Shown piece by piece: positions 7,872 to 51,466 of a DNA stretch of 64,000 nucleotides. The number at the start of each line of letters is the position of its first letter. The stretch's first letter is position 1. This DNA is from Candidatus Falkowbacteria bacterium. GTDB lineage: Bacteria > Patescibacteriota > Patescibacteriia > UBA11705 > JACRDX01. Below the pieces are notes generated by a model. It saw only the letters and a program-made list of their open reading frames with translations. It ran no database searches and was not told the DNA's origin. Both the position numbers and the translations under genes were made by a program. The DNA lies in NCBI GenBank assembly GCA_043798985.1, contig JAZDOE010000001.1, positions 309 to 64,308 on the forward strand. The letters run 5' to 3'.

Positions 7872-7986
7872 GTTTTCTCCTTTTCAACGGGTTTTCAAAG
7901 TTCGTTGACTGATAATTCAGCTTAGCAAGTTTTTTTGTTCTTGTCAACGATTGACAACCCTAAAAATTTTGCGCTAAGATGCGTAA

Positions 7987-8006
7987 AGACGTAGCATGCT
8001 ACGTCT
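7987..8006. repeat. Perfect 20-bp palindrome agacgtagcatgctacgtct (28 bp with one mismatch). Member of the GTAGAGACG...CGTCTCTAC family, sitting at the operator position of the groES promoter.
   Basis: It lies 7 nt downstream of the -10 (TAAGAT, 7975-7980) of a TTGACA-18-TAAGAT promoter. Same family as the copies at 21485, 40347 and 44742. Confidence 0.8.
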
Positions 8007-8039
8007 CTACAATTTAAAAAATAAATAATTTTTAAAATT

Positions 8040-8324: not shown

Positions 8325-9974
<1,650 letters not shown>

Positions 9975-17186: not shown

Positions 17187-17297
17187 TGTCATTTCGACCC
17201 CACAACGCCCGCTTCGCCGAGGCGAGTGGGGGAGAAATCCCTTGTGAAATGCATTTGCGAAGGGATTCCTCACCCTTTGCAAGGGTTCGGAATGACA
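17187..17297 (-). mobile_element. MITE/RPE-like hairpin repeat, full-length copy R1 (111 bp), minus orientation, intergenic between island A/H and rny
   Basis: Terminal inverted repeats tgtcatttcgacccc ... ggttcggaatgaca. The internal core gggggagaaatcccttgt(g/a)aa is shared with copies at 42447, 44175 and 49030. The element is itself flanked by an 8-bp inverted repeat (gagcgtcg / cgacgctc). Confidence 0.8.
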
Positions 17298-20853: not shown

Positions 20854-22049
20854 AAATTTGCATAATAACAAATTTATACCAGCCGCATAGTCGCGGCGGC
20901 GCGGAATTGATTGCCAAAACAATGGCAAACGGTTTTGTCAGCGCTGGTGATTCAGTTGTTGTTATTTCAACAAAACCAACGCGCGGTTTATCCGTGGATC
21001 AGGCGAGCGGGCGCATGCGAATTTATCGTTTCCTGCCGCTGAATATTTTTTATTATTTAAATGATTATAAACACAGCGCGCCAATCCGGTTGCTGTGGCA
21101 TTTTTTTGACATGTTCAATTGGCACAGCGCCAAAGTTGTCGCCGGAATTTTGAAAAATGAAAAACCTGATTTAGTCGTCACACACAATTTAAAAGGCATT
21201 GGTTTGTTAATACCGCGCGTAATCGCGCGGCTGAAATTAAAGCATGTTCATGTTTTGCACGATGTTCAGCTTGTTGTTCCATCTGGTCTGATTTTGAAAA
21301 ATCACGAGCAAGATTTTTCCATTGTCGGCTGGCCGACAAGAGTTTACGCTGGGATTTGTCGCTGGTTGTTTGGCAAAGTTAGTTTTGTCGTTTCGCCATC
21401 AAAATGGTTGCTTGATTTTTATGTTAGAAATGGATTTTTCAAAAACAGCCAGCAACAAACTATTCGCAATCCTGTGGTTGGCGTAGAGACGAGACATGTC
21501 TCGTCTCTGCAAAAGACCAATCAATTTTTGTTTGTTGGGCAAATTGAAAAGCACAAAGGCATTGATTGGTTAGTAAATTTTTGGAGGAAAAAGAATATTG
21601 CTGACGAATTGTTGATCGTTGGCCATGGATCGTTGAAGCATGGCTACGAAACTGCAAATCAGGACGAATGTTACAAATCTGCGAATATTAAGTTTTTTGG
21701 AAAAAAGACGAGGGAAGAGTTGGAAGAAATGTACCGGCCAGCTGACTTTTTAATCGCACCGTCATTATGTTATGAAAACTCTCCGACGGTGATTCAATCA
21801 GCGTTCCAAAACGGGGTGCCGGTGATTGTCGCTGATATTGGCGGCGCGGCAGAATTGGTTGAAAATAAAAAAACAGGATTTATTTTTCCTGCTGGCAACG
21901 AAGACGCGTTGATTAAAATCTTGGAAAATATCAAGTTGCTCGCGGACAAGGATTATCAAAAAATGTCAGAGCAATGTTTGGAAAAGTCGCGAGATTGGGA
22001 TGTTGAAAGATATATCGTAGCTTGTAGGAAGATAGCTGGTAGCTTGTAG
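20850..22049 (+). CDS. Glycosyltransferase family 1 (GT4), carrying an in-frame palindromic insertion (VETRHVSSLQ)
   Basis: N-terminal RGGAE glycine loop and C-terminal E.SPTVIQSAFQNGVPVIVADIGG motif. It overlaps the previous GT gene by 4 nt. Confidence 0.85.
   Translation: MKICIITNLYQPHSRGGAELIAKTMANGFVSAGDSVVVISTKPTRGLSVDQASGRMRIYRFLPLNIFYYLNDYKHSAPIRLLWHFFDMFNWHSAKVVAGILKNEKPDLVVTHNLKGIGLLIPRVIARLKLKHVHVLHDVQLVVPSGLILKNHEQDFSIVGWPTRVYAGICRWLFGKVSFVVSPSKWLLDFYVRNGFFKNSQQQTIRNPVVGVETRHVSSLQKTNQFLFVGQIEKHKGIDWLVNFWRKKNIADELLIVGHGSLKHGYETANQDECYKSANIKFFGKKTREELEEMYRPADFLIAPSLCYENSPTVIQSAFQNGVPVIVADIGGAAELVENKKTGFIFPAGNEDALIKILENIKLLADKDYQKMSEQCLEKSRDWDVERYIVACRKIAGSL
21485..21508. repeat. Perfect 24-bp palindrome agagacgagacatgtctcgtctct inside the GT CDS, in-frame. 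Member of the GTAGAGACG family.
   Basis: Its reverse complement is identical. It encodes ETRHVSS on both strands. Same sequence family as the copies at 7987, 40347 and 44742. Confidence 0.8.
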
Positions 22050-40284: not shown

Positions 40285-40346
40285 ATGCCCCGCATTTTAT
40301 CTGTAAAGTACGAAATGATTGCGGGGTCCCGCCATCGAGGCGGGAT

Positions 40347-40371
40347 AGAGACGAGGCATTGCCTCGTCTCT
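40347..40371. repeat. Perfect 25-bp palindrome agagacgaggcattgcctcgtctct. GTAGAGACG family, downstream of ftsH and upstream of island B.
   Basis: Reverse complement is identical apart from the central base. An adjacent hairpin cccgcc-atcgag-gcggg lies immediately upstream. Confidence 0.8.
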
Positions 40372-40487
40372 TGGGTTTGCGCGACGGTTGACAAAAAGTA
40401 AGGTCTGATGTAAGATGATTTTGCTGTGGTAAAACCATTTGGTTCAGACCCGCCAGCGTTTAGTTCTTTCAAAGAGGAGCAACTACC

Positions 40488-41306
40488 ATGAGTAGAACAA
40501 CCTCGCAGGACTCGGGTTTCCCGGGATGGTATGTCACGTTTCAGACCGCTGCGTTGAATCAACTGCCGCGTCCGCCAGAGCTGGATCAGGTGACAGCAGA
40601 AGGGTGGATCAAGAACCAAGGCGCGCTGAAAAAGGTGCTTGCCGAAGATTTGCTGCCGCCAACGCTGAAGAAGACGATGGCGGAGCGGGTGGGGGGCGAG
40701 CTGGCAAGTGAAATTCTGGGCAAGGATTTCATCAACGCGGCAGAGATTGAGGCGGCGTTTAGGATGAAGTACGAGGCAGAACAGCTGGCAATGCTGGAAG
40801 ATTCGATGCCGTCGGAAGAAGTCCTGCGGTGGATGGCGGCAAACGAGTACATGCTCGTGGCGAAGCCACCGACAGAAATGTCGTTGCTGGATGTTCGGGC
40901 GGAGAAGCGTGAGCTGTTTTACAGCAAGACCGATGACGGATGGTATTGCAAGCAGGAGCAGACGTTTGCGCGCGATGACAAGACCAGCGCAGGGTGGCTT
41001 GCACTGCGCAAGACAATAGTGCCGAATTCGCAGAGCAAGACATGGGAAGAGCAGCAGAAGCTGCTGACCAAGGACGAGAGAGTGCCGAACGCGGCAGAGG
41101 TAGCGTGGGGAGTGATTGCGTACAAGGCGGTGAGAAACGTGTTTCTCTTGCCCACGATGTACGCGCGGACAAGTTCCGTGTCTGCCCTTGGTTTTCATGT
41201 GGATGTCGGTGGTTTTGTTGTTGCCGGCTTAGATGTCTGCGTCTGGTTTGACTGTTACGTTGGTCGCCTCGGCTTGGCGGGCGCGCGCCTGCCTACCGTC
41301 AGGTAG
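40488..41306 (+). CDS. Hypothetical protein, high-GC island 'B', paralog of the 15870..16673 product
   Basis: About 58% GC. Own TTGACA-17-TAAGAT promoter (40389-40417). Alignable with island A over several segments. Gly-rich hydrophobic C-terminus. Confidence 0.6.
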   Translation: MSRTTSQDSGFPGWYVTFQTAALNQLPRPPELDQVTAEGWIKNQGALKKVLAEDLLPPTLKKTMAERVGGELASEILGKDFINAAEIEAAFRMKYEAEQLAMLEDSMPSEEVLRWMAANEYMLVAKPPTEMSLLDVRAEKRELFYSKTDDGWYCKQEQTFARDDKTSAGWLALRKTIVPNSQSKTWEEQQKLLTKDERVPNAAEVAWGVIAYKAVRNVFLLPTMYARTSSVSALGFHVDVGGFVVAGLDVCVWFDCYVGRLGLAGARLPTVR

Positions 41307-41422
41307 GGAAGTTCTAGTTTCTACTTGACTTTTTGAGTTTTTTGATGCTTTGTGGGTATTCGCAACGCGGATACTCCTTTTTTTTGATTTTGTGGTATAA
41401 TAAAACAAACTAAAAAACAAAT

Positions 41423-42436: not shown

Positions 42437-42446
42437 GGTTGCTCGT

Positions 42447-42570
42447 TGTCATTCCGAATCCGCCCGGGGCGGATGAGGAATCCCTTCGCAAATGCCTTTA
42501 CAAGGGATTTCTCCCCCGCTCGCCTCGCTATCGCTTGTGCGAAGCGGGCTAAAGCAGGGTCGAAATGACA
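42447..42570 (+). mobile_element. MITE/RPE-like hairpin repeat, full-length copy R2 (124 bp), plus orientation, abutting the nfo stop codon
   Basis: tgtcattccgaatcc...gaggaatcccttcgcaaatgcctttacaagggatttctccccc...gggtcgaaatgaca. Same family as 17187..17297 (reverse orientation) and the short copies. Confidence 0.8.
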
Positions 42571-43398
42571 TCAGCGCAGACTTTTTAACAGCTTAAGCGT
42601 TTGCTTGTAAGACATTTTTTCTGCCGGAGTTTCTATGATTCCGGCGATTTTTTTTAGTTTTGGATGGTTGATCAAGGCTTTGAACGCAGCAAGCCCAATT
42701 GTTCCTTTGCCAATATCTTCATGCCGATCTTTTCGCGAACCAAGCTCTGCTTTCGCGTCGTTCAGATGTAAAATTTTCAGTTTGTTTAATCCGATCGTGT
42801 TGTTAAATTGTTTTAACGTTTTATTTAACGCGGCGCTCGTTCGTAAATCATAGCCAGAAACAAACGCGTGACAAGTGTCCATGCAAACGCCGACGTTTTT
42901 GTTTTTTAGATTTTTAATAATGTAGCCGATTTCATCAAAAGCATCTCCAATAATTTTGCCGGCGCCGGCGGAATTTTCCAAAAGCAATTGAGGCGCGCCA
43001 GAATAGCCATCCAAGATTTGATTGAGAGATTTTATCGCAAGTTGGCGCGCTTGCATTTCCGTTTGCTCGCCGGCGCTGCCAATGTGTGTGATTACGTACG
43101 CCACGCCAAGTTTGTTCGCGATGTCCAATTCGCTTTTTATTGAAGCAATGGACGCGTGGCGGATTTTATTATTTATTGAAGCGAGGTTTATGTAATACGC
43201 GCTGTGAATGCAAACAGTTGAAAACCGAAAGCGCGCGCAATTTTGTTTGAACGCGTCAATTGATTTTTTTGTGTAGGTTGGTTTGCCACCGCGCGGTGAA
43301 CGCGAAAACATTTGAAAAACTTCGCAACCAAGTTGCGCGGCGCCTAAGGGCGCGTTTTGTATTCCGCCGGCGATGGAAACGTGAGAACCAAATAGCAT
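42571..43398 (-). CDS. nfo: Endonuclease IV (AP endonuclease family 2)
   Basis: MLFGSHVSIAGG N-terminus and conserved His/Asp/Glu metal ligands of Nfo. 275 aa. Confidence 0.9.
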   Translation of the reverse strand: MLFGSHVSIAGGIQNAPLGAAQLGCEVFQMFSRSPRGGKPTYTKKSIDAFKQNCARFRFSTVCIHSAYYINLASINNKIRHASIASIKSELDIANKLGVAYVITHIGSAGEQTEMQARQLAIKSLNQILDGYSGAPQLLLENSAGAGKIIGDAFDEIGYIIKNLKNKNVGVCMDTCHAFVSGYDLRTSAALNKTLKQFNNTIGLNKLKILHLNDAKAELGSRKDRHEDIGKGTIGLAAFKALINHPKLKKIAGIIETPAEKMSYKQTLKLLKSLR

Positions 43399-43484: not shown

Positions 43485-44693
43485 TTAGGATTTCGGATTT
43501 CGTATTTCGAATTTTATTTTATGGATGTTTCTAATTACATGTTGCCCCGGCCTAGAATATTGCCAAGAGCCAACGATTTTAAGATTTGTTTGCGCGAGAA
43601 TCTTTTCAAGGTTAAGATTGAATGTTTGTTGTTTAATGTTAAAAGACGGGACAATGATAACGAGCGTGCCTGTTTTTTTCAAAACAACTGCCAGTTGTTC
43701 AAGGATTTCCGCGTAAAAAATTTCAAGTTCGCTGACCTGTTGTTTTATGACGTTCAACGGTTCATTGCCCCAAAGCGGTTTGCCTAAAAATGGTTCTGTC
43801 ACAATCACGTCAATGGAATTTTTCGCGACTTCATTGCTCAATATTCTGGCGTCCAGTTGGGCTATTTCAATATTGAATTGTTTGTTGGTTTGCTGTTCTA
43901 TCCATGCGATATTTTTGCGAGAATCTTCAACTGCTTTTGCTGAAAAATCAGAGCCGAGAATTTTTTTAAAACCAAGTAGCGCCGCTTGTTGTAAAATTGT
44001 TCCGGAGCCGCAGAATGGATCCAAGATTGTTGCGGTTTGTTTTGCTTCGCTTAAATTTAACATTATTGTCGCGACTTTTGGCGGCAACATACCTGATTCA
44101 GCGTCTTTGTTCGGTCTGTCGTAGTCAAATTTGGAGAACTTTTCAAATGGCTGGACTGCCAATGTGCGGCCAATTACAAGGGATTTCTCCCCCGCCAAGG
44201 CGGGGTCGAAATGACAGGTGCGTGCATCAGCCGAGAACAAATTAAATTCAGCGCCGGCGTCGGTTAAAAGTTTGTTTTTTTCGGTTGCAACGCTGGATAA
44301 ATATTTTTCGCCTTGTTGCGGATAAACAAATCTGCAGGGTTGTTCAATTTCTTTTTTAAGTTGTTTGCTCAAATTTATTGGTTTGTTTTTGCCGGTATAA
44401 TCATTGATGCCAAATATGATTTTTTTGTCCGTTTGCGGCAACAAAGACTTTATTGTTGCGCTAAGGTTGGTTGAGTCTGTTGTGCCAACAATTTCGCCGA
44501 TCTTAATTGTACCGCCTAAATGTTGAATCATTTGCTCCGCGTCTATTTTGGTTTTAAGGTCAAAAATAGCAAATTCTTTTGTTGATGCTAAACATTTCGC
44601 GATAATTTTGTCGCGTTTAAAAACTGCTTCTAATTCAGCAATGGATAATTCTGGTTGTCTGCCTAAAATAAAGAAATATTGCATATATCGCAT
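43485..44693 (-). CDS. Putative RNA (guanine-N2) methyltransferase, Trm11/TrmN-like (UPF0020 family), carrying an in-frame MITE insertion
   Basis: SAM motif I LDPFCGSGTIL and a motif-IV-like VTEPFLGKP. A perfect TATAAT lies 7 nt before the ATG, suggesting leaderless or short-leader expression. Contains the 17-aa MITE-encoded peptide TCHFDPALAGEKSLVIG. Confidence 0.6.
   Translation of the reverse strand: MRYMQYFFILGRQPELSIAELEAVFKRDKIIAKCLASTKEFAIFDLKTKIDAEQMIQHLGGTIKIGEIVGTTDSTNLSATIKSLLPQTDKKIIFGINDYTGKNKPINLSKQLKKEIEQPCRFVYPQQGEKYLSSVATEKNKLLTDAGAEFNLFSADARTCHFDPALAGEKSLVIGRTLAVQPFEKFSKFDYDRPNKDAESGMLPPKVATIMLNLSEAKQTATILDPFCGSGTILQQAALLGFKKILGSDFSAKAVEDSRKNIAWIEQQTNKQFNIEIAQLDARILSNEVAKNSIDVIVTEPFLGKPLWGNEPLNVIKQQVSELEIFYAEILEQLAVVLKKTGTLVIIVPSFNIKQQTFNLNLEKILAQTNLKIVGSWQYSRPGQHVIRNIHKIKFEIRNPKS
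44175..44216 (+). mobile_element. Short (42-bp) copy R3 of the MITE/RPE-like family, inserted in-frame within the methyltransferase CDS (which is read on the opposite strand)
   Basis: tacaagggatttctcccccgccaaggcggggtcgaaatgaca. The reverse complement translates in the gene's frame to TCHFDPALAGEKSLV. Confidence 0.8.
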
Positions 44694-44741: not shown

Positions 44742-44769
44742 GTAGAGACGAGATATATCTCGTCTCTAC
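44742..44769. repeat. Perfect 28-bp palindrome gtagagacgagatatatctcgtctctac (GTAGAGACG family)
   Basis: Reverse complement is identical. Intergenic, about 50 bp upstream of the methyltransferase start and about 140 bp upstream of the island E promoter. Confidence 0.85.
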
Positions 44770-44860
44770 CATATATAAACCATTTTTGTTTTGACGCAAA
44801 ATTGAGGGTTGTGGACAGGTAATACCCTCAAATTCGGTAGAGGGTAGATTATGATATTGT

Positions 44861-44868
44861 GGGGGGGG
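44861..44868 (+). repeat. G8 homopolymeric tract about 45 bp upstream of the -35 of the island E promoter
   Basis: ggggggggca at 44861; the only G8 in intergenic sequence in this window. Confidence 0.6.
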
Positions 44869-44990
44869 CATCAAAATGGCTAAATTTGGCTGGTTTTAAG
44901 GCAAGGCTATTGACTTTTTCGCCAAGAGGGTGTATAATGTAATTATTGAAGTGATCGTTGAAGCAGTTTAACTCATAGCGGAGGTGTGTC

Positions 44991-45455
44991 ATGGAGCAGA
45001 ACTACAACGACGAGATGGGACTGGACAAGGCGCTCGGATGCAAGCCGTCGAAGAACCACCGTGTGCTGGATCGGATCGCGAAGATCGTCGGCGCGCTGAT
45101 GTTGGCCGGAATCGTGTTGTTCCTCGGACTGACGGCGTTGCAGCTGGTTCGCGTGTACAACCTCAACGAGGACTCGATGGAGCTGACGCAGAGAGTGGAC
45201 GAGTTCACCAAGTGCGGCGAGTACGAGTCGTACAACAAGTGCATGGATCGGGCGATCGCGCGGAATCCGCAGAAGGCGAAGCGGATGTTCGCCAGCGTGC
45301 AGGATTTACTTGACCGGAGAGCCGAAGGCTTCTTCTGGCCGGCGAACGCGGACTACCAGGGAGCAAACGGCTGGCCAGTGACGAGCCTCCGCGTCAATCG
45401 GGAGCAGTTGAGTGCGTCGCTGGACAAGTGGCGCACTCAACCCGGCAACCTGTAG
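44991..45455 (+). CDS. Hypothetical single-pass membrane protein, high-GC island 'E'
   Basis: About 60% GC with strongly GC3-biased codons. Promoter is TTGACT-17-TATAAT (44912-44940). SD CGGAGGTGTGTC-ATG. One TM helix (IVGALMLAGIVLFLGLTAL). Confidence 0.6.
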   Translation: MEQNYNDEMGLDKALGCKPSKNHRVLDRIAKIVGALMLAGIVLFLGLTALQLVRVYNLNEDSMELTQRVDEFTKCGEYESYNKCMDRAIARNPQKAKRMFASVQDLLDRRAEGFFWPANADYQGANGWPVTSLRVNREQLSASLDKWRTQPGNL

Positions 45456-45537
45456 GCGAGCAGTCTCGCAACGAGCGTGGCGACATGGGCGTTCAGAATC
45501 TTGAGCGCCCTGTTTTTTTTGCTACGAATGGCGGCTA

Positions 45538-45569
45538 CGTTGACGATAAAGCTAATTTGCGCTATCATT
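45538..45569 (+). repeat. 32-bp direct repeat copy 1 (cgttgacgataaagctaatttgcgctatcatt), containing a TTGACG-17-TATCAT promoter
   Basis: Identical except for one base to 46523..46554. The two copies bracket gene F. Confidence 0.85.
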
Positions 45570-45645
45570 ATGAACAAGAATAGCGACCGCACTCGAGCCT
45601 CGGTTTTCAATTGCTTTATATATTTTTTGGAGGTATACTTAATTT

Positions 45646-46458
45646 GTGTGCGTCGTTATTTTAGAAATTAATTTTATTTTTATGGTTTCGTTTGAAGATC
45701 CAACATTGCAGTCAACAGGTGAAGCTAAATCCGTTCAAGACGAACAAAAGGGAAAAAAAGATGCGATTATTTCTCCGGAACGAGCGCTTGAAGAGTCGCG
45801 CGCATTTTATCAACGGCATAATTTTGCCGCGCTTTTGGACAAGATTCCCGAGAGCATTATTCTTTCTGATGAGGCCAGGAAAAAGATTGAGGAGGCGCAG
45901 AAGCAGGGGTTTGATCGTATGATGATTATGCCGGATATTGCGACGCAGAATGAGCAGACCAAAGAGATTGTAACTGGTTTGGTTACCGACAAACCGAGCT
46001 ATTATAATGCGCTAGATCAGCATAGTCGTGATTCTGAGAATTGGCATCAGCATTTACCCAAAAATCGTCCAGAGGGGAAACCTTATATGTTTCTTTATAA
46101 ATCCACAGGCGTAGAGCCAGAAACATTAGGCAAAACGCATCCTGAAGCGGAAGCATATTTGAAAGAGCATGGTTGGACAGGGCTTGCTTTGCAGGAGGCT
46201 TATTTGATTATGTATAAGGATAGAGAGGATAACCCAACTGCTTTTGCTAACAGGCTCGTGGAGTATGGCGAGAAATACGGTAGTTATTTGCTCGATGAGA
46301 GCGGGTATAGCCAGAAGTATATGACTGCGTGGTCTAAATTGGCGCCAGATCCCGATACTGGCGAGCGCGCACATGAATATCAATGGTCCAATTCTTTTGG
46401 TGGAAACAGAAGAGATGACCACGTCGGGACAAAAGCGTCAATAGTTATTGAATTATAG
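45646..46458 (+). CDS. Hypothetical soluble protein, island 'F'. Start is uncertain: GTG at 45646 (with an upstream GGAGG) or ATG at 45682.
   Basis: 270/258-aa ORF between the two promoter-containing direct repeats. It ends with a terminator hairpin (atcacgtga...tcgcgtgatTTTTTT, about 46471-46506). Confidence 0.5.
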   Translation: MCVVILEINFIFMVSFEDPTLQSTGEAKSVQDEQKGKKDAIISPERALEESRAFYQRHNFAALLDKIPESIILSDEARKKIEEAQKQGFDRMMIMPDIATQNEQTKEIVTGLVTDKPSYYNALDQHSRDSENWHQHLPKNRPEGKPYMFLYKSTGVEPETLGKTHPEAEAYLKEHGWTGLALQEAYLIMYKDREDNPTAFANRLVEYGEKYGSYLLDESGYSQKYMTAWSKLAPDPDTGERAHEYQWSNSFGGNRRDDHVGTKASIVIEL

Positions 46459-46522
46459 TACAATCAGAGAATCACGTGACTTATTTATGAGTTCGCGTGA
46501 TTTTTTATATAGCGATGAGTCG

Positions 46523-46554
46523 CGTTGACGATGAAGCTAATTTGCGCTATCATT
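46523..46554 (+). repeat. 32-bp direct repeat copy 2, the promoter immediately upstream of infB
   Basis: cgttgacgatgaagctaatttgcgctatcatt, 6 nt before the infB ATG region. Confidence 0.85.
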
Positions 46555-46559
46555 GACAT

Positions 46560-48563
46560 ATGAATGTTTCAGAATTGGCTAGAAAATTAAGAACAACCAC
46601 AGATGAGCTTTTGGCAAAATTACCAGAGCTTGGTTTTGATATTGGTAAACGCGCGATTAAAGTTGATGACCGCGTTGCGAGTCGCATTGTTCAGGCGTGG
46701 AACAGCTATAAAATTCAGGAAGCGCAAAAGCAGGATTATCTGCGCGCCAAAGAACATCAGGCCGCTACCCGCGAGGGCGCGCAATTGAGCGGCGAAAAAG
46801 TTCAGATTCCGGCTGTTTTGAGTGTGCGCGAGCTTGCGGAAATTTTGAAAACGCCGGTTTCGCAGGTAATTGGGACATTAATGAAAAACGGCGTGATCGC
46901 GTCATTGAATCAGAAGATTGATTATGAGACAGCCGCGATTGTCGCCGAAGAAATGGGCTTTCCTGCTGAACAAACAACAGCTAATGCCGATGATCAGGTT
47001 TTTGTTAGTCAGATTGAAAAAATGGATAAAGTTTTAGCGGCCGATACTGGCAAGTTATCTCGGCCGCCGATAGTCGTTGTGATGGGACATGTTGATCATG
47101 GTAAAACAAAATTATTGGACGCGATTAGAAAAACGCACGTGATGGAAGGCGAAGCTGGCGGAATTACGCAGCACATTGGAGCATACCAAGTTGTTTGGAA
47201 AGATAAAAATAAGAATGAGCAGAAGATCAGCTTTATTGACACCCCGGGTCACGAGGCTTTTACTGCAATGCGGTCGCGCGGCGCTGAAGTTGCTGACATT
47301 GCGATTTTGGTTATCGCGGCCGACGATGGTGTTATGCCGCAGACTATTGAAGCAATTAAAATTGCGGAGGCCGCGAAATTGCCGATTATTGTCGCGATAA
47401 ACAAAATTGACAAACCAGGCGCTGATCCTGAAAAAATCAAGCGTGAATTGTCGCAGCAAAATTTAATCAGCGAAGACTGGGGCGGCAAAACAATAATGAT
47501 TCCAATCTCAGCAAAGCAAAATCAAAATATTGACGCTGTGCTGGACGCGATTTTGTTGGTTGCCGGGATGGAAGTAGCAACAATACAAGCCAATCCTGAT
47601 GGTAAAATAATGGCTTGTGTAATTGAGTCGCACATTGATAAGAATTCTGGTCCTGTTGCGACATTGCTGGTAAAAAATGGAACATTGCGAGTCGCTGATA
47701 TTTTGCATATAGATGGCGTTTTCGTTGGCAAAGTAAAAACACTGAAAGATTGGTTGGGCAAGGAGCTGAAAGAAGTCGAACCATCATGTCCAGCGCAGAT
47801 TTTGGGATTTAAAATCGCGCCAAAAGTTGGCGACATTGTTGAAGTTGCCGCTGAAATGGGAGACGTCACACGCGTGAAATTTAGAAAATCGGAAAAGCAA
47901 GAATCAGCCGGAGTTGATGAATCCAGTCAGACCGAAGACAAAGAAGGGGTGACAAAAGTGAATTTAATTTTGCGAGCCGACGTGCTTGGTTCGCTTGAAG
48001 CTATTGTTGAATCCCTGAAAAAATTAGAGCGTGAGGATTTGAAAATAAAAATTGTTAAGCAAGGGTTGGGAAATTTAACGGAAAATGACGTGGCATTGGC
48101 AGAGGCGAGCAAAGCGATTGTTTTTGGTTTTAATGTGCGATTCGGCAGAGGCGTTGAAGAGGCGTTAAAAGCCAAGAATATTACGGTTAAGCTTCACCGC
48201 ATCATTTACGATTTAATTGATGATGTTAAAGAAAAGATAAATGAGTTGGTAAAACCTGAAACTGTTCGTTTGGATTTGGGCAAGGTTGAAGTTTTGGTAA
48301 TATTTAAAAAGACAGCCGGGCAAATGGTAATTGGCGGCAAGGTTGTTGACGGCGAAATTGTGCAAGGCGCTAAAGCGGCTGTGTTGCGGCAGGGTAATTT
48401 TATCACAACCGGCGACATTGAAAAATTACAAGCAGCCAAACAAGACGTGACAAATTGCGTGCGCGGACAAGAGTGCGGAGTGCAATTCAGAGGTCAGCCA
48501 TTGATTGAAAAAGGTGATATTTTAGAGGTTTTTCGCGAAGAAGCCAAGAAACATGGGATATAA
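46560..48563 (+). CDS. infB: Translation initiation factor IF-2
   Basis: G domain (VMGHVDHGKTKLLD, DTPGHEAF, NKID) plus the C-terminal beta-barrels. 667 aa. Confidence 0.95.
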   Translation: MNVSELARKLRTTTDELLAKLPELGFDIGKRAIKVDDRVASRIVQAWNSYKIQEAQKQDYLRAKEHQAATREGAQLSGEKVQIPAVLSVRELAEILKTPVSQVIGTLMKNGVIASLNQKIDYETAAIVAEEMGFPAEQTTANADDQVFVSQIEKMDKVLAADTGKLSRPPIVVVMGHVDHGKTKLLDAIRKTHVMEGEAGGITQHIGAYQVVWKDKNKNEQKISFIDTPGHEAFTAMRSRGAEVADIAILVIAADDGVMPQTIEAIKIAEAAKLPIIVAINKIDKPGADPEKIKRELSQQNLISEDWGGKTIMIPISAKQNQNIDAVLDAILLVAGMEVATIQANPDGKIMACVIESHIDKNSGPVATLLVKNGTLRVADILHIDGVFVGKVKTLKDWLGKELKEVEPSCPAQILGFKIAPKVGDIVEVAAEMGDVTRVKFRKSEKQESAGVDESSQTEDKEGVTKVNLILRADVLGSLEAIVESLKKLEREDLKIKIVKQGLGNLTENDVALAEASKAIVFGFNVRFGRGVEEALKAKNITVKLHRIIYDLIDDVKEKINELVKPETVRLDLGKVEVLVIFKKTAGQMVIGGKVVDGEIVQGAKAAVLRQGNFITTGDIEKLQAAKQDVTNCVRGQECGVQFRGQPLIEKGDILEVFREEAKKHGI

Positions 48564-48946: not shown

Positions 48947-51466
48947 ATGCAAAAATATAACCATAAAAAGATAGAAAAGAAATGGCAGAAAGAGTGGGAA
49001 AAGAGTGGGATAAACGAGGCGAAGACATTTACAAGGGATTTCTCCCCCGTCAGGGACGGGGTCGAAATGACAACTGCGCATGCTGGAAAAGAACGACCCA
49101 AGTTTTATTGTTTAGTTGAGTTTCCATATCCGTCCGGAGATGGTTTGCATGTCGGACATGTGCGCTCATACACGGCCATGGACATTATTTCCCGCAAAAA
49201 GCGAATGCAGGGATTTAATGTTTTATATCCAATCGGTTGGGATGCTTTTGGTTTGCCGACTGAAAATTTTGCTATAAAAACAGGAAAACAACCAGCGCTC
49301 GTCACAAAGGAAAATGTAAAAGTTTTTAAAAAACAAATTCAATCACTTGGAATCAGTTTTGACTGGTCGCGCGAAATAAATACCACTGATCCTGAATATT
49401 ACAAATGGACGCAGTGGATTTTTTTGAAACTTTTTGAAAAAGGTTTGGCGTATAAAAAGAAAATGCCCATAAACTGGTGCCCAAAATGCAAAAGTGGATT
49501 GGCGAACGAGGAAGTTGTTGACGGAAAATGCGAGCGGTGCGGCGCGGAGACGACAACAAAGGAGCTTGAACAATGGATGTTGCGAATCACAAAATACGCG
49601 GACAGGTTGATTGAAGATTTGGAAACAGTTGATTATTTGGAAAAAATAAAAACCCAGCAAATAAATTGGATCGGGCGTAGTTATGGCGTCAATTTTAAAC
49701 ACAAGATAAAAGATTTGAACATTGAGTTTGAAGTTTTTGATTCAATTCCGCAAACGCATCAGGCGCAGACTTTTTTTATTATCGCGCCCGAACACCTATT
49801 GGTGCGTGAGTTGGTTAAGGGTACAAAAGAAGAATCCGCGGTCATGAAATTTGTTGATGAAATTGTAAAAAAGAAGCTCGCCAAGAAGTTTGATATTGAT
49901 AAGGACATGGAAGGTGTTTTCACTGGACGATGTGTTGAAAATTATTTGGGAACAGGCAGAGATTTGCCGATTTGGGTCGCAAGTTTTGCGTTGGTTGATT
50001 ATGGGACGGGCATTGTCGGTTGCAGTGCGCACGATGAGCGGGATTTTAAATTCGCGAAAAAATATAATATCCCATTAAAGCCGGTTTTGTTTCCAAAAGA
50101 TAAAGAATTGGCAGAAAAAGTTCGTGCCATGGAAATATTTTATCGCGAGTCGGACGGGATTTTGGAAGAGCCGGTGGAATTTAAAGGGCGACAATGGGAC
50201 GAGGCGAGGGAAGATATTGTTGATTGGATTGAAAAAAATAATTTGGGCAAACGGACAGTGCAATATAAATTGCGTGACTGGGTTTTTTCGCGGCAGCATT
50301 ATTGGGGAGAACCAATACCGTTAATTTTTTGTGAAAAGTGTGGCTGGGTAGCGGTTCCGGAAGATGAGTTGCCAGTTGAATTGCCAAAAGTGAAAAAATA
50401 CGAGCCAACTGAAACAGGCGAATCGCCATTGGCAGCAATTGAAAAATGGGTGAAAACAAAATGCCCAAAGTGCGGGAGTGTTGCGCGGCGTGAAACTGAC
50501 ACAATGCCAAATTGGGCAGGTAGCTCGTGGTATTACCTCGCATACTTGATTGGCAAAATGACCAAATCCCAATTCCCAATGACCAATTATGGAAAGGAAT
50601 TTAAATACTGGCTTCCGGTTGACTTGTATAATGGCGGCATGGAACACACGACTTTGCATTTATTGTATTCAAGATTTTGGCACAAATTTTTATATGACAT
50701 TGGCGCTGTGCCAACCAGCGAGCCATACCAGCGACGCATTTCGCACGGTATGATTCTCGCGCCAGACGGTCAAAAAATGTCAAAGTCGCGCGGTAATGTT
50801 ATAAATCCTGACAAAATTGTTGAAGAATTTGGCGCGGATGTTTTGAGAATTTACGAAATGTTTATGGGTCCGTACGATCAGGCTGTTGCGTGGGATTTGA
50901 ATGGCGTAAAGGGCGCGTCAAGATTTGTTGAGCGCGTTTATCATTTTAAAAATTTTACTGAAAAATGTGAGCCTGAAGTTGAAAATTTGTTGCACAAAAC
51001 AATTAAAAAAGTCAGCGAAGATATTGATGAGCGCAGATTTAACACGGCTGTTTCGGCAATGATGATTTTCGTGAATAAAATTTACGAAAAAGGTTGTTGC
51101 AAAGAATGTTTTAAAAAGTTTTTACTTTTGTTAAGTCCGTTTGCCCCGCATTTGGCAGAAGAGTTGTTTGTCGCACTTCCCCTCGACGAAGCTCGGGGCA
51201 GGCTCGCTCATGGTGACAAGTCATCAATATTTTTGAATGAATGGCCAACGTTTGACGTAACAAAAATCGTGGATAAAATGATTGAAGTTGTTATTCAAAT
51301 CAATGGAAAAGTAAGAGGACGATTGCAGGTTGCGGCAGATATTCAGGAAAAAGATATTTTAGAATTGGCGCTGACCGACGAGAAAATTAAAAGTCAAATT
51401 GAGGGGAAAAAAATAATTAAAACAATGTACGTTCCGAAGAAAATAGTGAGCATTGTTGTTAAGTAA
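48947..51466 (+). CDS. leuS: Leucine--tRNA ligase, carrying an in-frame MITE-encoded insertion near the N-terminus
   Basis: HVGH (HIGH-class) motif in PYPSGDGLHVGHVRSY and KMSKS (QKMSKSRGN). 839 aa. About 15 extra residues (FTRDFSPVRDGVEMT) occur between the conserved N-terminal helix and the KFYCL strand. Confidence 0.95.
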   Translation: MQKYNHKKIEKKWQKEWEKSGINEAKTFTRDFSPVRDGVEMTTAHAGKERPKFYCLVEFPYPSGDGLHVGHVRSYTAMDIISRKKRMQGFNVLYPIGWDAFGLPTENFAIKTGKQPALVTKENVKVFKKQIQSLGISFDWSREINTTDPEYYKWTQWIFLKLFEKGLAYKKKMPINWCPKCKSGLANEEVVDGKCERCGAETTTKELEQWMLRITKYADRLIEDLETVDYLEKIKTQQINWIGRSYGVNFKHKIKDLNIEFEVFDSIPQTHQAQTFFIIAPEHLLVRELVKGTKEESAVMKFVDEIVKKKLAKKFDIDKDMEGVFTGRCVENYLGTGRDLPIWVASFALVDYGTGIVGCSAHDERDFKFAKKYNIPLKPVLFPKDKELAEKVRAMEIFYRESDGILEEPVEFKGRQWDEAREDIVDWIEKNNLGKRTVQYKLRDWVFSRQHYWGEPIPLIFCEKCGWVAVPEDELPVELPKVKKYEPTETGESPLAAIEKWVKTKCPKCGSVARRETDTMPNWAGSSWYYLAYLIGKMTKSQFPMTNYGKEFKYWLPVDLYNGGMEHTTLHLLYSRFWHKFLYDIGAVPTSEPYQRRISHGMILAPDGQKMSKSRGNVINPDKIVEEFGADVLRIYEMFMGPYDQAVAWDLNGVKGASRFVERVYHFKNFTEKCEPEVENLLHKTIKKVSEDIDERRFNTAVSAMMIFVNKIYEKGCCKECFKKFLLLLSPFAPHLAEELFVALPLDEARGRLAHGDKSSIFLNEWPTFDVTKIVDKMIEVVIQINGKVRGRLQVAADIQEKDILELALTDEKIKSQIEGKKIIKTMYVPKKIVSIVVK
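49030..49072 (+). mobile_element. Short (43-bp) copy R4 of the MITE/RPE-like family, inserted in-frame in leuS
   Basis: tacaagggatttctcccccgtcagggacggggtcgaaatgaca, which translates in the leuS frame as TRDFSPVRDGVEMT. Confidence 0.8.

Follow-up and report, generated by a model that had tools for sequence, protein, structure and literature searches.

Several described systems leave a gene beside or between short repeats. Target-site duplications of insertion sequences (IS) and transposons are usually 2-14 bp long; the attC sites of integron cassettes are imperfect palindromes of 57-141 bp that fold as single strands, with an intI gene nearby; and the Correia elements of Neisseria are multicopy repeats with inverted ends that carry outward promoters. 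Genes can also be switched on by a copied promoter, and a passage of PMC11111574 describes duplication-based promoter capture as a documented way to activate acquired or silent genes, citing Blount 2012, the activation of his in Salmonella (Anderson and Roth 1978) and spontaneous tandem duplications that switched on transferred genes (Li and Bock 2019). The present analysis concerns gene F, an open reading frame (ORF) located immediately upstream of infB, the gene for translation initiation factor IF-2, in a 64-kb stretch of DNA (the window) from a 72.8-kb contig of a metagenome-assembled genome (MAG) of Candidatus Falkowbacteria, an uncultured member of the Candidate Phyla Radiation (CPR). 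Gene F is bracketed by a 32-bp direct repeat, and its promoter probably arose by promoter capture: the infB promoter region (at least 41 nt) would have been duplicated onto F with no transposase or site-specific recombinase involved, a reading to which a probability of roughly two in three is assigned.

The repeat and its single copy in close relatives

The 32-mer, CGTTGACGAT[A/G]AAGCTAATTTGCGCTATCATT, occurs on the + strand as P1, upstream of F, and as P2, upstream of infB (Table 1), with 985 nt from start to start. As the first-pass annotation of this stretch had claimed, the two copies are identical at 31 of 32 positions, the sole difference being position 11 (A in P1, G in P2), and their longest exact shared run is 21 nt. 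The repeat is confined to these 32 nt, with no extension on either side within the window, and a search of both strands of the window with up to three mismatches recovered only P1 and P2; the same search in 100 dinucleotide shuffles gave no match. Each copy reads as a TTGACG-17-TATCAT promoter, as had also been proposed, agreeing with the consensus at 10 of 12 positions. The first-pass annotation had considered that the 32-mer might simply be a common promoter motif with many copies elsewhere in the genome. A degenerate promoter pattern was found once in each of two close relatives and in 0 of the 81 other loci among the 83 fetched, and no extra copy is present in the window, which covers 64 kb of a genome with about 1 Mb more.

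The two close relatives carry the corresponding site in its empty form. The first, L081, is a 1,672-bp Logan contig from SRR22388055 found via the sole homolog (72% protein identity) of E, the ORF that precedes P1 in the window, and the second, L082, is contig JACRDX010000014.1 of GCA_016212745.1, found via the N-terminus of IF-2 (93% identical as protein). In the first 600 nt of infB, identity is 90.0% between the window and L081, 88.8% between the window and L082 and 86.3% between L081 and L082, and synonymous divergence (dS) is ~0.52-0.55 between the window and either relative and 0.81 between the two relatives.

The gene order in L082, through whose annotation rpoB and rpoC near the locus were identified, is rpoB-rpoC-ftsH-membrane protein-nfo(-)-methyltransferase(-), followed after 300 nt by infB, with neither E nor F. 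The spacer between the methyltransferase gene and infB holds a single promoter copy, CGTTGACGATAAAGCTAAATCGCGCTATCATT (9920-9951), after which come ATGGACAAGCG, a palindromic element GTAGAGACGAGACATGTCTCGTCTCT, TTATGGAATTTT and the infB ATG. The L081 contig runs unbroken from its E homolog through the same terminator, GCGCG, one promoter copy CGTTGACGCTAAAGCCAATTTGCGCTATCATT (742-773) and GACGTAAT to the infB ATG and into infB, and F is missing from that stretch. Since L081 and L082 each hold one promoter copy and no F, F together with one promoter copy is an insertion or deletion (indel) relative to both close relatives. The earlier expectation that related genomes would have a single copy and neither E nor F was borne out in full by L082, and by L081 for F but not for E, which is present there. 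No relative shows F in place without the repeat, an arrangement that had been named as speaking against an insertion footprint. Look-ups by exact protein of F, IF-2, the methyltransferase and a 53-aa DUF5679 protein recovered no record on any other contig.

Resident and probable captured promoter copies

The 16 nt on each side of each promoter copy were compared in an anchored flank test. The right flank of P1, ATGAACAAG, resembles the right flank of the L082 promoter, ATGGACAAG (p 0.0016); the right flank of P2, GACAT-ATG, resembles GACGTAAT-ATG of L081 (p 0.0002); and the left flank of P2, GATGAGT--CG, resembles GATCAGTAGCG of L082 (p 0.04). The left flank of P1, GGCGGCTA, has an anchored score of 0 (no match) against the left flanks of P2, L081 and L082, and the two bases left of the promoter are CG in P2, L081 and L082 and TA in P1. 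On this evidence P2 is probably orthologous to the resident infB promoter, while P1 looks like a copy of the promoter that took along 9 nt or more of the ancestral leader and has a left junction that is new.

The flanks thereby favour two further claims of the first-pass annotation, that the second copy is the infB promoter, P2 being apparently orthologous to the promoter before infB in both relatives and ending 5 nt before the ATG at 46560, and that the first copy is attached to F, P1 being followed by the F ORF and both being absent from L081 and L082. They also separate the two origins that had been offered for the presumed insertion footprint: capture at the promoter fits the flanks, whereas a cassette that duplicated its target site is not supported, there being no terminal inverted repeats, transposase or integrase, and the homology of P1 running 9 nt further to the right from a new left junction. 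The arrangement has the sequence features that promoter capture calls for. The duplicated segment holds the putative promoter of the neighbouring gene, TTGACG-17-TATCAT immediately preceding infB in the window and in both relatives; P1 sits in front of F, while infB as donor keeps P2 and both relatives lack F and P1; and the copied stretch goes past the promoter into 9 nt of leader, with the other junction new.

The capture most likely predates the split between the window and L081 lineages, because P1 keeps a leader piece that was lost at P2, a loss common to L081. The L081 sequence TTTTTTT-GC|GCG-P equals the L082 spacer GC[TACGAAT...CAGTA]GCG-P minus one internal deletion, and L081 would later have deleted P1 and F in one such step (GC[...]GCG). 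The most economical order of events would begin with the insertion of E, followed by the copying of the promoter and the start of the leader onto F, the loss of the infB leader at P2, the split of the window and L081 lineages and finally a single deletion in L081 that would have taken out P1 and F.

Five promoter positions vary among the four copies: position 9 (C in L081, A in P1, P2 and L082), position 11 (G in P2, A in P1, L081 and L082), position 16 (C in L081, T in P1, P2 and L082), position 19 (A in L082, T in P1, P2 and L081) and position 21 (C in L082, T in P1, P2 and L081). P1 equals the inferred ancestral promoter sequence, and P2, L081 and L082 carry private changes only, so an attempt to date the duplication from the four sequences was uninformative. 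The L082 spacer or leader is marginally similar to the leader or 3' region of F (p 0.009-0.045), a similarity that was not significant in unanchored local tests and was not relied on.

Several points weigh against promoter capture as reconstructed here. The flank homologies extend over just 9 nt, or ~9 nt once a gap is allowed, and they are not significant when the flanks are aligned locally without an anchor. The close relatives found number two, one of which is a 1.7-kb contig, and two scans of metagenomes for the promoter, with the exact sequence and with the five variable positions left degenerate, returned 0 matches. The activity and start sites of the promoter are predictions drawn from consensus and conservation. 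P1 and P2 differ at one position and orthologous copies at 2-4, which allows no dating of the duplication, and an ancestral gain with loss in L081 saves only about one event over a gain from a related donor by the window lineage. The window is, moreover, a metagenome-assembled contig.

Alternative origins of the bracketed gene

The gain from a related donor is the alternative that survives best, although it is unlikely. Under this Campbell-type or strain-to-strain import, an F module with an infB-type promoter and leader would have entered after the L081 split by recombination at or near the promoter, and the repeat would mark the homology used in that step, with no duplication in place. A single crossover of a promoter-bearing circle would yield the observed pattern, in which the inner flanks (right of P1, left of P2) are L082-like and the outer right flank is L081-like, and the absence of F from L081, the difference of only 1 nt between P1 and P2 against 2-4 nt between orthologous copies and the CPR-like composition of F are all compatible with it. 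However, the scheme requires a donor in which F was already fused to the infB promoter and leader, merely shifting the capture elsewhere, and neither such a donor nor a close F ortholog was found in 5.8 billion proteins. The longest exact homology available for recombination is just 21 nt, and the left flank of L081 (GC|GCG) is explained by one deletion that also removes F.

Movement of F as a cassette is very unlikely. In one form of this explanation the 32-mer would be the att-like core of a site-specific recombination system, with F moved in trans by a recombinase encoded elsewhere; direct repeats do surround a single gene, and 32 bp is within the length range of att and dif cores. The empty sites in L081 and L082 hold one copy, but one core copy at empty sites is also expected under promoter capture. 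Neither F nor the neighbouring genes scanned on both sides showed a transposase, recombinase or integrase domain, and the region contains no tRNA genes and no Rfam families. The 32-mer has no dyad symmetry or hairpin, and as single-stranded DNA with its flanks it folds no better than shuffles (z +1.4, +0.5). It coincides to the base with a -35/-10 promoter, and its substitutions avoid only the hexamers, the opposite of what a recombination core would show, while the ancestral homology at P1 runs 9 nt past the repeat on one side only and the insertions of E and of a further ORF at 40488 occurred without such a repeat. In the absence of inverted repeats, recombinase, tRNA and attC-like structure, a target-site duplication, an att site and an integron-type cassette are each unlikely.

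That the arrangement arose in assembly, or by the collapse of a population variant into a single MAG contig, is highly improbable. Gene F is indeed seen on one contig only, and that contig is assembled from a metagenome; yet the two copies differ at position 11, and at the usual final k-mer sizes an assembler would not be misled by an exact run of only 21 nt. The ORF of F is long and intact, has homologs in its family and comes with a leader and a terminator of its own, and the flanks on either side are orthologous to those of relatives. Target-site duplication by a transposable cassette, suggested by direct repeats flanking an inserted gene, is effectively refuted by a repeat length far above the usual, by the lack of a transposase and of terminal inverted repeats at the ends of 45570-46522, and by repeat copies that are not both flanked outward by ancestral sequence, the ancestral homology lying inside of P1. 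No second copy of the bracketed segment is present within the window.

It is a long shot that the infB promoter 32-mer acts as a homing point for small promoter-hitchhiking gene modules in CPR bacteria, entering by recombination at the conserved promoter. If that were true, modules would gain guaranteed expression, would leave the essential gene an intact promoter and could pop out cleanly via the repeat, and essential-gene promoters would be recurrent, reversible docking sites for accessory genes.

Predicted promoter function and the infB leader

The 32-mer is interpreted as the core sigma-70-type promoter of infB, its activity and start sites being predicted from the consensus match and the pattern of conservation. 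Three lineages with synonymous divergence of ~0.5 retain it immediately before infB. All five substitutions among the four copies fall in the 17-nt spacer, with none in the 12 hexamer positions or the 3 flanking positions (chance ~0.04, hand count), a pattern suggestive of selection on the two hexamers, -35 and -10. Each copy is preceded by a strong terminator, which would insulate the promoter: that of E (45487-45520, dG -23.5 kcal/mol) before P1 and that of F before P2. The latter, which the first-pass annotation had recognised as F's own, is a predicted hairpin with a U-run that 0 of 200 shuffles fold as well (Table 1).

Transcription from P1 is predicted to start at ~45574-45576 and transcription from P2 at ~46560, the A of the infB ATG, the -10 hexamer of P2 lying at -12 to -7 from that A (window 46548-46562). 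Because the predicted P2 start falls on the start codon, the infB mRNA is predicted to be leaderless in the window. The infB product aligns with relatives from residue 1. The infB leader is predicted to be ~3 nt in L081 (767-784) and is 48 nt in L082 (9952-10003), where it has a palindromic element inside, and ~60 nt in the more distant L083. IF-2 is known to favour leaderless initiation. A Shine-Dalgarno sequence is recognisable in only ~10 of 55 genes of the window (crude gene calls), so the lack of one is uninformative here. GGAGG-type sites are present in all three genes inserted relative to L082, namely E, the 40488 ORF and, if GTG 45646 is its start, F.

The region between the E terminator and P2 would thus form an expression module of ~1 kb, consisting of P1, 9 nt of old infB leader, a leader of ~100 nt, F and an intrinsic terminator. 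RNA polymerase would start at P1 (~45575), transcribe F and stop at the hairpin at 46466-46506, and a second, independent start at P2 (~46560) would produce an infB mRNA with essentially no leader. Gene F would in this way receive the transcription signal of an essential translation gene, with infB keeping its own intact promoter.

Gene F

Gene F and E match proteins V1902_00220 and V1902_00215, respectively, of a Candidatus Falkowbacteria MAG. An alternative GTG start at 45646 would extend F, whose stop is at 46458, from its annotated length to 270 aa. The GC content of F (44%) and its GC content at third codon positions (GC3, 0.43) are both host-like, in contrast to E (GC3 0.86), and because GC3 is host-like F probably came from a compositionally similar CPR source.

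A word search of 5.8 billion proteins with F recovered F itself as the sole match, and an exhaustive HMMER search recovered 59 other proteins (60 including F) at 26-39% identity, with E-values down to 2.7e-20. The family aligns over near-full length and shares the motifs FY..H.L..A..LP, GFDRA, NRP..K.YLLLY.S.P.P.ET, GLTL.EYL.LQR, W.WLLDS and LGARP..VV. Its members are annotated as hypothetical, one of them is in another Falkowbacteria MAG, and their gene neighbourhoods vary. By sequence similarity, F is a member of an uncharacterised protein family with ~60 remote members. No significant Pfam match was obtained for the 37 aligned family members including F, five families matching one member each at E 4e-4 to 8e-3, and F had no match in PHROG, PADLOC or NCBIfam. 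An AlphaFold2 model built with the family alignment is confident (predicted local distance difference test, pLDDT, 80; predicted template-modelling score, pTM, 0.79) and predicts an alpha/beta fold, for which no significant match was found in the PDB or BFVD, with weak C-type-lectin-like matches at E ~0.2.

The F leader is predicted to fold with dG -26.5 kcal/mol (z -2.7) and to contain a long-range stem of ~15 bp (Table 1). Such a stem would mask the alternative GTG start codon, with GGAGG left in the loop that it encloses. The stem may regulate translation, or may be a relic of a palindromic element.

Other ideas about F were rejected. An origin of F from a duplicated infB 5' end was dismissed, the similarity of the start regions being no better than that of 21 of 73 other ORF starts. 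The only protein match between F and infB pairs KIEEAQKQ with KIQEAQKQ (E 0.046), and this stretch belongs to the consensus of the F family. By hhalign, the probability that F is related to the 40488-41306 ORF, or to the small variable ORFs that Uhrbacteria-like relatives have before infB, is <1%. Finally, F as the target of a diversity-generating retroelement, an idea that arose from the weak C-type-lectin-like matches and a bAvd gene near an F homolog, was discarded, with no template repeat in the window and the C-type-lectin-like fold matches not significant.

Neighbouring insertions and palindromic elements

The locus reads methyltransferase gene (-), E promoter, E, terminator, P1, leader of ~110 nt, F, terminator, P2, 5 nt and infB (Table 1). 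The methyltransferase gene is its conserved left neighbour, the L082 ortholog (82% protein identity) lying directly upstream of infB.

Table 1. Features of the infB locus and palindromic elements (positions in the window unless a relative is named)
Feature	Position	Strand	Details
RNA/S-adenosylmethionine (SAM) methyltransferase gene (UPF0020/Trm14-like)	43485..44693	-	Pfam PF01170 3.8e-17; NCBIfam TIGR01177
E module: promoter, GGAGG ribosome-binding site, ORF, terminator	44834..45520	+	Without counterpart in L082, present in L081
P1, putative infB core promoter copy fused to F	45538..45569	+	-35 TTGACG 45540-45545; -10 TATCAT 45563-45568
ATGAACAAG, probable remnant of ancestral infB leader carried with P1	45570..45578	+	L082: ATGGACAAG directly after its sole promoter copy
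F leader	45579..45681	+	GGAGG 45629-45633; predicted long-range stem 45577-45592 with 45646-45662
Gene F, 258 aa as annotated (V1902_00220)	45682..46458	+	ATG 45682
F intrinsic terminator: predicted hairpin, then UUUUUUAUAU	46466..46506	+	dG -18.8 kcal/mol, z -4.46
P2, putative resident infB core promoter	46523..46554	+	-35 46525-46530; -10 46548-46553
infB (translation initiation factor IF-2), 667 aa	46560..48563	+	Pfam GTP_EFTU, IF-2, IF2_N
Repetitive extragenic palindromic (REP)-like element	window 7983-8010, 21483-21510, 44742-44769, variant 40345-40371; L082 9761-9789, 9963-9988; L081 1-28		
~55 nt palindromic element	17227-17245(-), 42445-42578, 44171-44224, 49026-49080		

The E ORF (44991-45455, 154 aa) has a GC content of 60% and a GC3 of 0.86, and is preceded by a strong, near-consensus predicted promoter, TTGACT-17-TATAAT (44910-44938), and by its GGAGG site. 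In L082 CCCTCAAAT directly abuts GCTACGAAT, and in the window these 9-mers flank the E module at 44825-44833 and 45521-45529. L081 shares the module (98-737), and dS between the window and L081 is 0.53 for E and 0.52 for infB, with a dN/dS (ratio of non-synonymous to synonymous divergence) of 0.35 for E. Because L081 shares the module and the dS of E equals that of infB, E must have entered before the window and L081 lineages parted. It is under selection, and forms a separate, older insertion outside the F indel. The E family has only two members among 5.8 billion proteins, and searches for its function in Pfam, PHROG, PADLOC and NCBIfam yielded nothing usable. The composition of E stands out in a genome of 42% GC, although the gene was resident there before the window and L081 lineages diverged.

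Compared with L082, the window has another high-GC (57%) insertion at 40329-41379, between ftsH and the membrane-protein gene, where L082 has only 143 nt. Its ORF (40488-41306) has its own predicted TTGACA-17-TAAGAT promoter (40388-40416) and a GAGGAG site, matches no family and is unrelated to F by hhalign. No flanking repeat was found at either of these two insertions relative to L082 (the E module and the 40488-41306 ORF), both of which have their own consensus promoters.

Two kinds of palindromic element recur. A REP-like element, GTAGAGACG-N10-CGTCTCTAC, is present in intergenic regions of all three genomes, where it adjoins or sits inside insertion points, including the inside of the L082 infB leader. 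A second element of ~55 nt, ACAAGGGATTTCTCCCCCG...CGGGGTCGAAATGACA, has four copies in the window and lies in frame in two conserved genes, the methyltransferase gene (residues ~157-175) and the gene for leucyl-tRNA synthetase (LeuRS) at its N-terminus (residues ~27-45). The same methyltransferase position holds a different insert in L082 and none in L083, and the IF-2 of L081 has an extra in-frame PPKEAQPSRAERGISKNR segment. In-frame palindromic elements are known in Rickettsia, and the ~55 nt element resembles these.

Species-level representatives are distant (IF-2 identity <=51%) and uninformative on the fine structure of the locus. Divergently oriented truB and rny are usually upstream of infB in these distant relatives, and small, unrelated, lineage-specific + strand ORFs often lie between truB and infB in L001, L002, L006, L007, L012 and L016 (~45-50% IF-2 identity). 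Genes appear to have been gained repeatedly at this position, immediately before infB.

Comparison with known systems

With the empty sites of close relatives to set beside the filled one, the locus appears to offer a clean natural illustration, resolved to the base pair, of a new gene in a very small genome gaining expression via the promoter of an essential gene next door. The position of F, a member of an uncharacterised CPR family, under the same predicted transcription signal as IF-2 provides a lead to when F is needed, and the captured copy, which keeps a piece of the old infB leader, would be a record of the shift of infB to an almost leaderless arrangement. Tidy as it is, the case is an ordinary one, of an evolutionary mechanism already known and not of a new kind of element, and it leaves the current understanding of promoters and gene gain unchanged.

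Each of the systems that the locus resembles shares part of this arrangement. As in the Correia elements, a short repeat supplies a promoter to an adjacent gene, but the 32-mer is found here only at the infB locus, with two copies in the window, one per relative and none elsewhere in the 64-kb window or the 83 loci. Like integrative elements at att sites and integron cassettes, the locus has a single gene between direct repeats and one copy at the empty site in relatives; unlike them, it has no integrase, attC-like palindrome or tRNA target, and the site is a promoter apparently under hexamer-specific constraint. Campbell-type integration likewise brackets an insert with a homologous direct repeat and is reversible by recombination between the repeats, whereas the homology here is 32 nt (21 nt exact), with no vector-like or element sequence and no known donor.

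The closest likeness is to promoter capture by duplication, in which a copy of a neighbour's promoter is placed upstream of a different, probably acquired gene, the donor keeps its own, a direct-repeat pair results and recombinase signals are lacking. All the features tested here agree with this mechanism. The present case differs from the described ones in scale, involving ~41 nt (the core promoter and 9 nt) rather than a kilobase-scale tandem duplication, and in setting, being a fixed natural allele of an uncultured CPR bacterium in which the donor would be the promoter of an essential translation gene. It differs also in that the captured copy appears to preserve a piece of leader that the donor gene has since lost.

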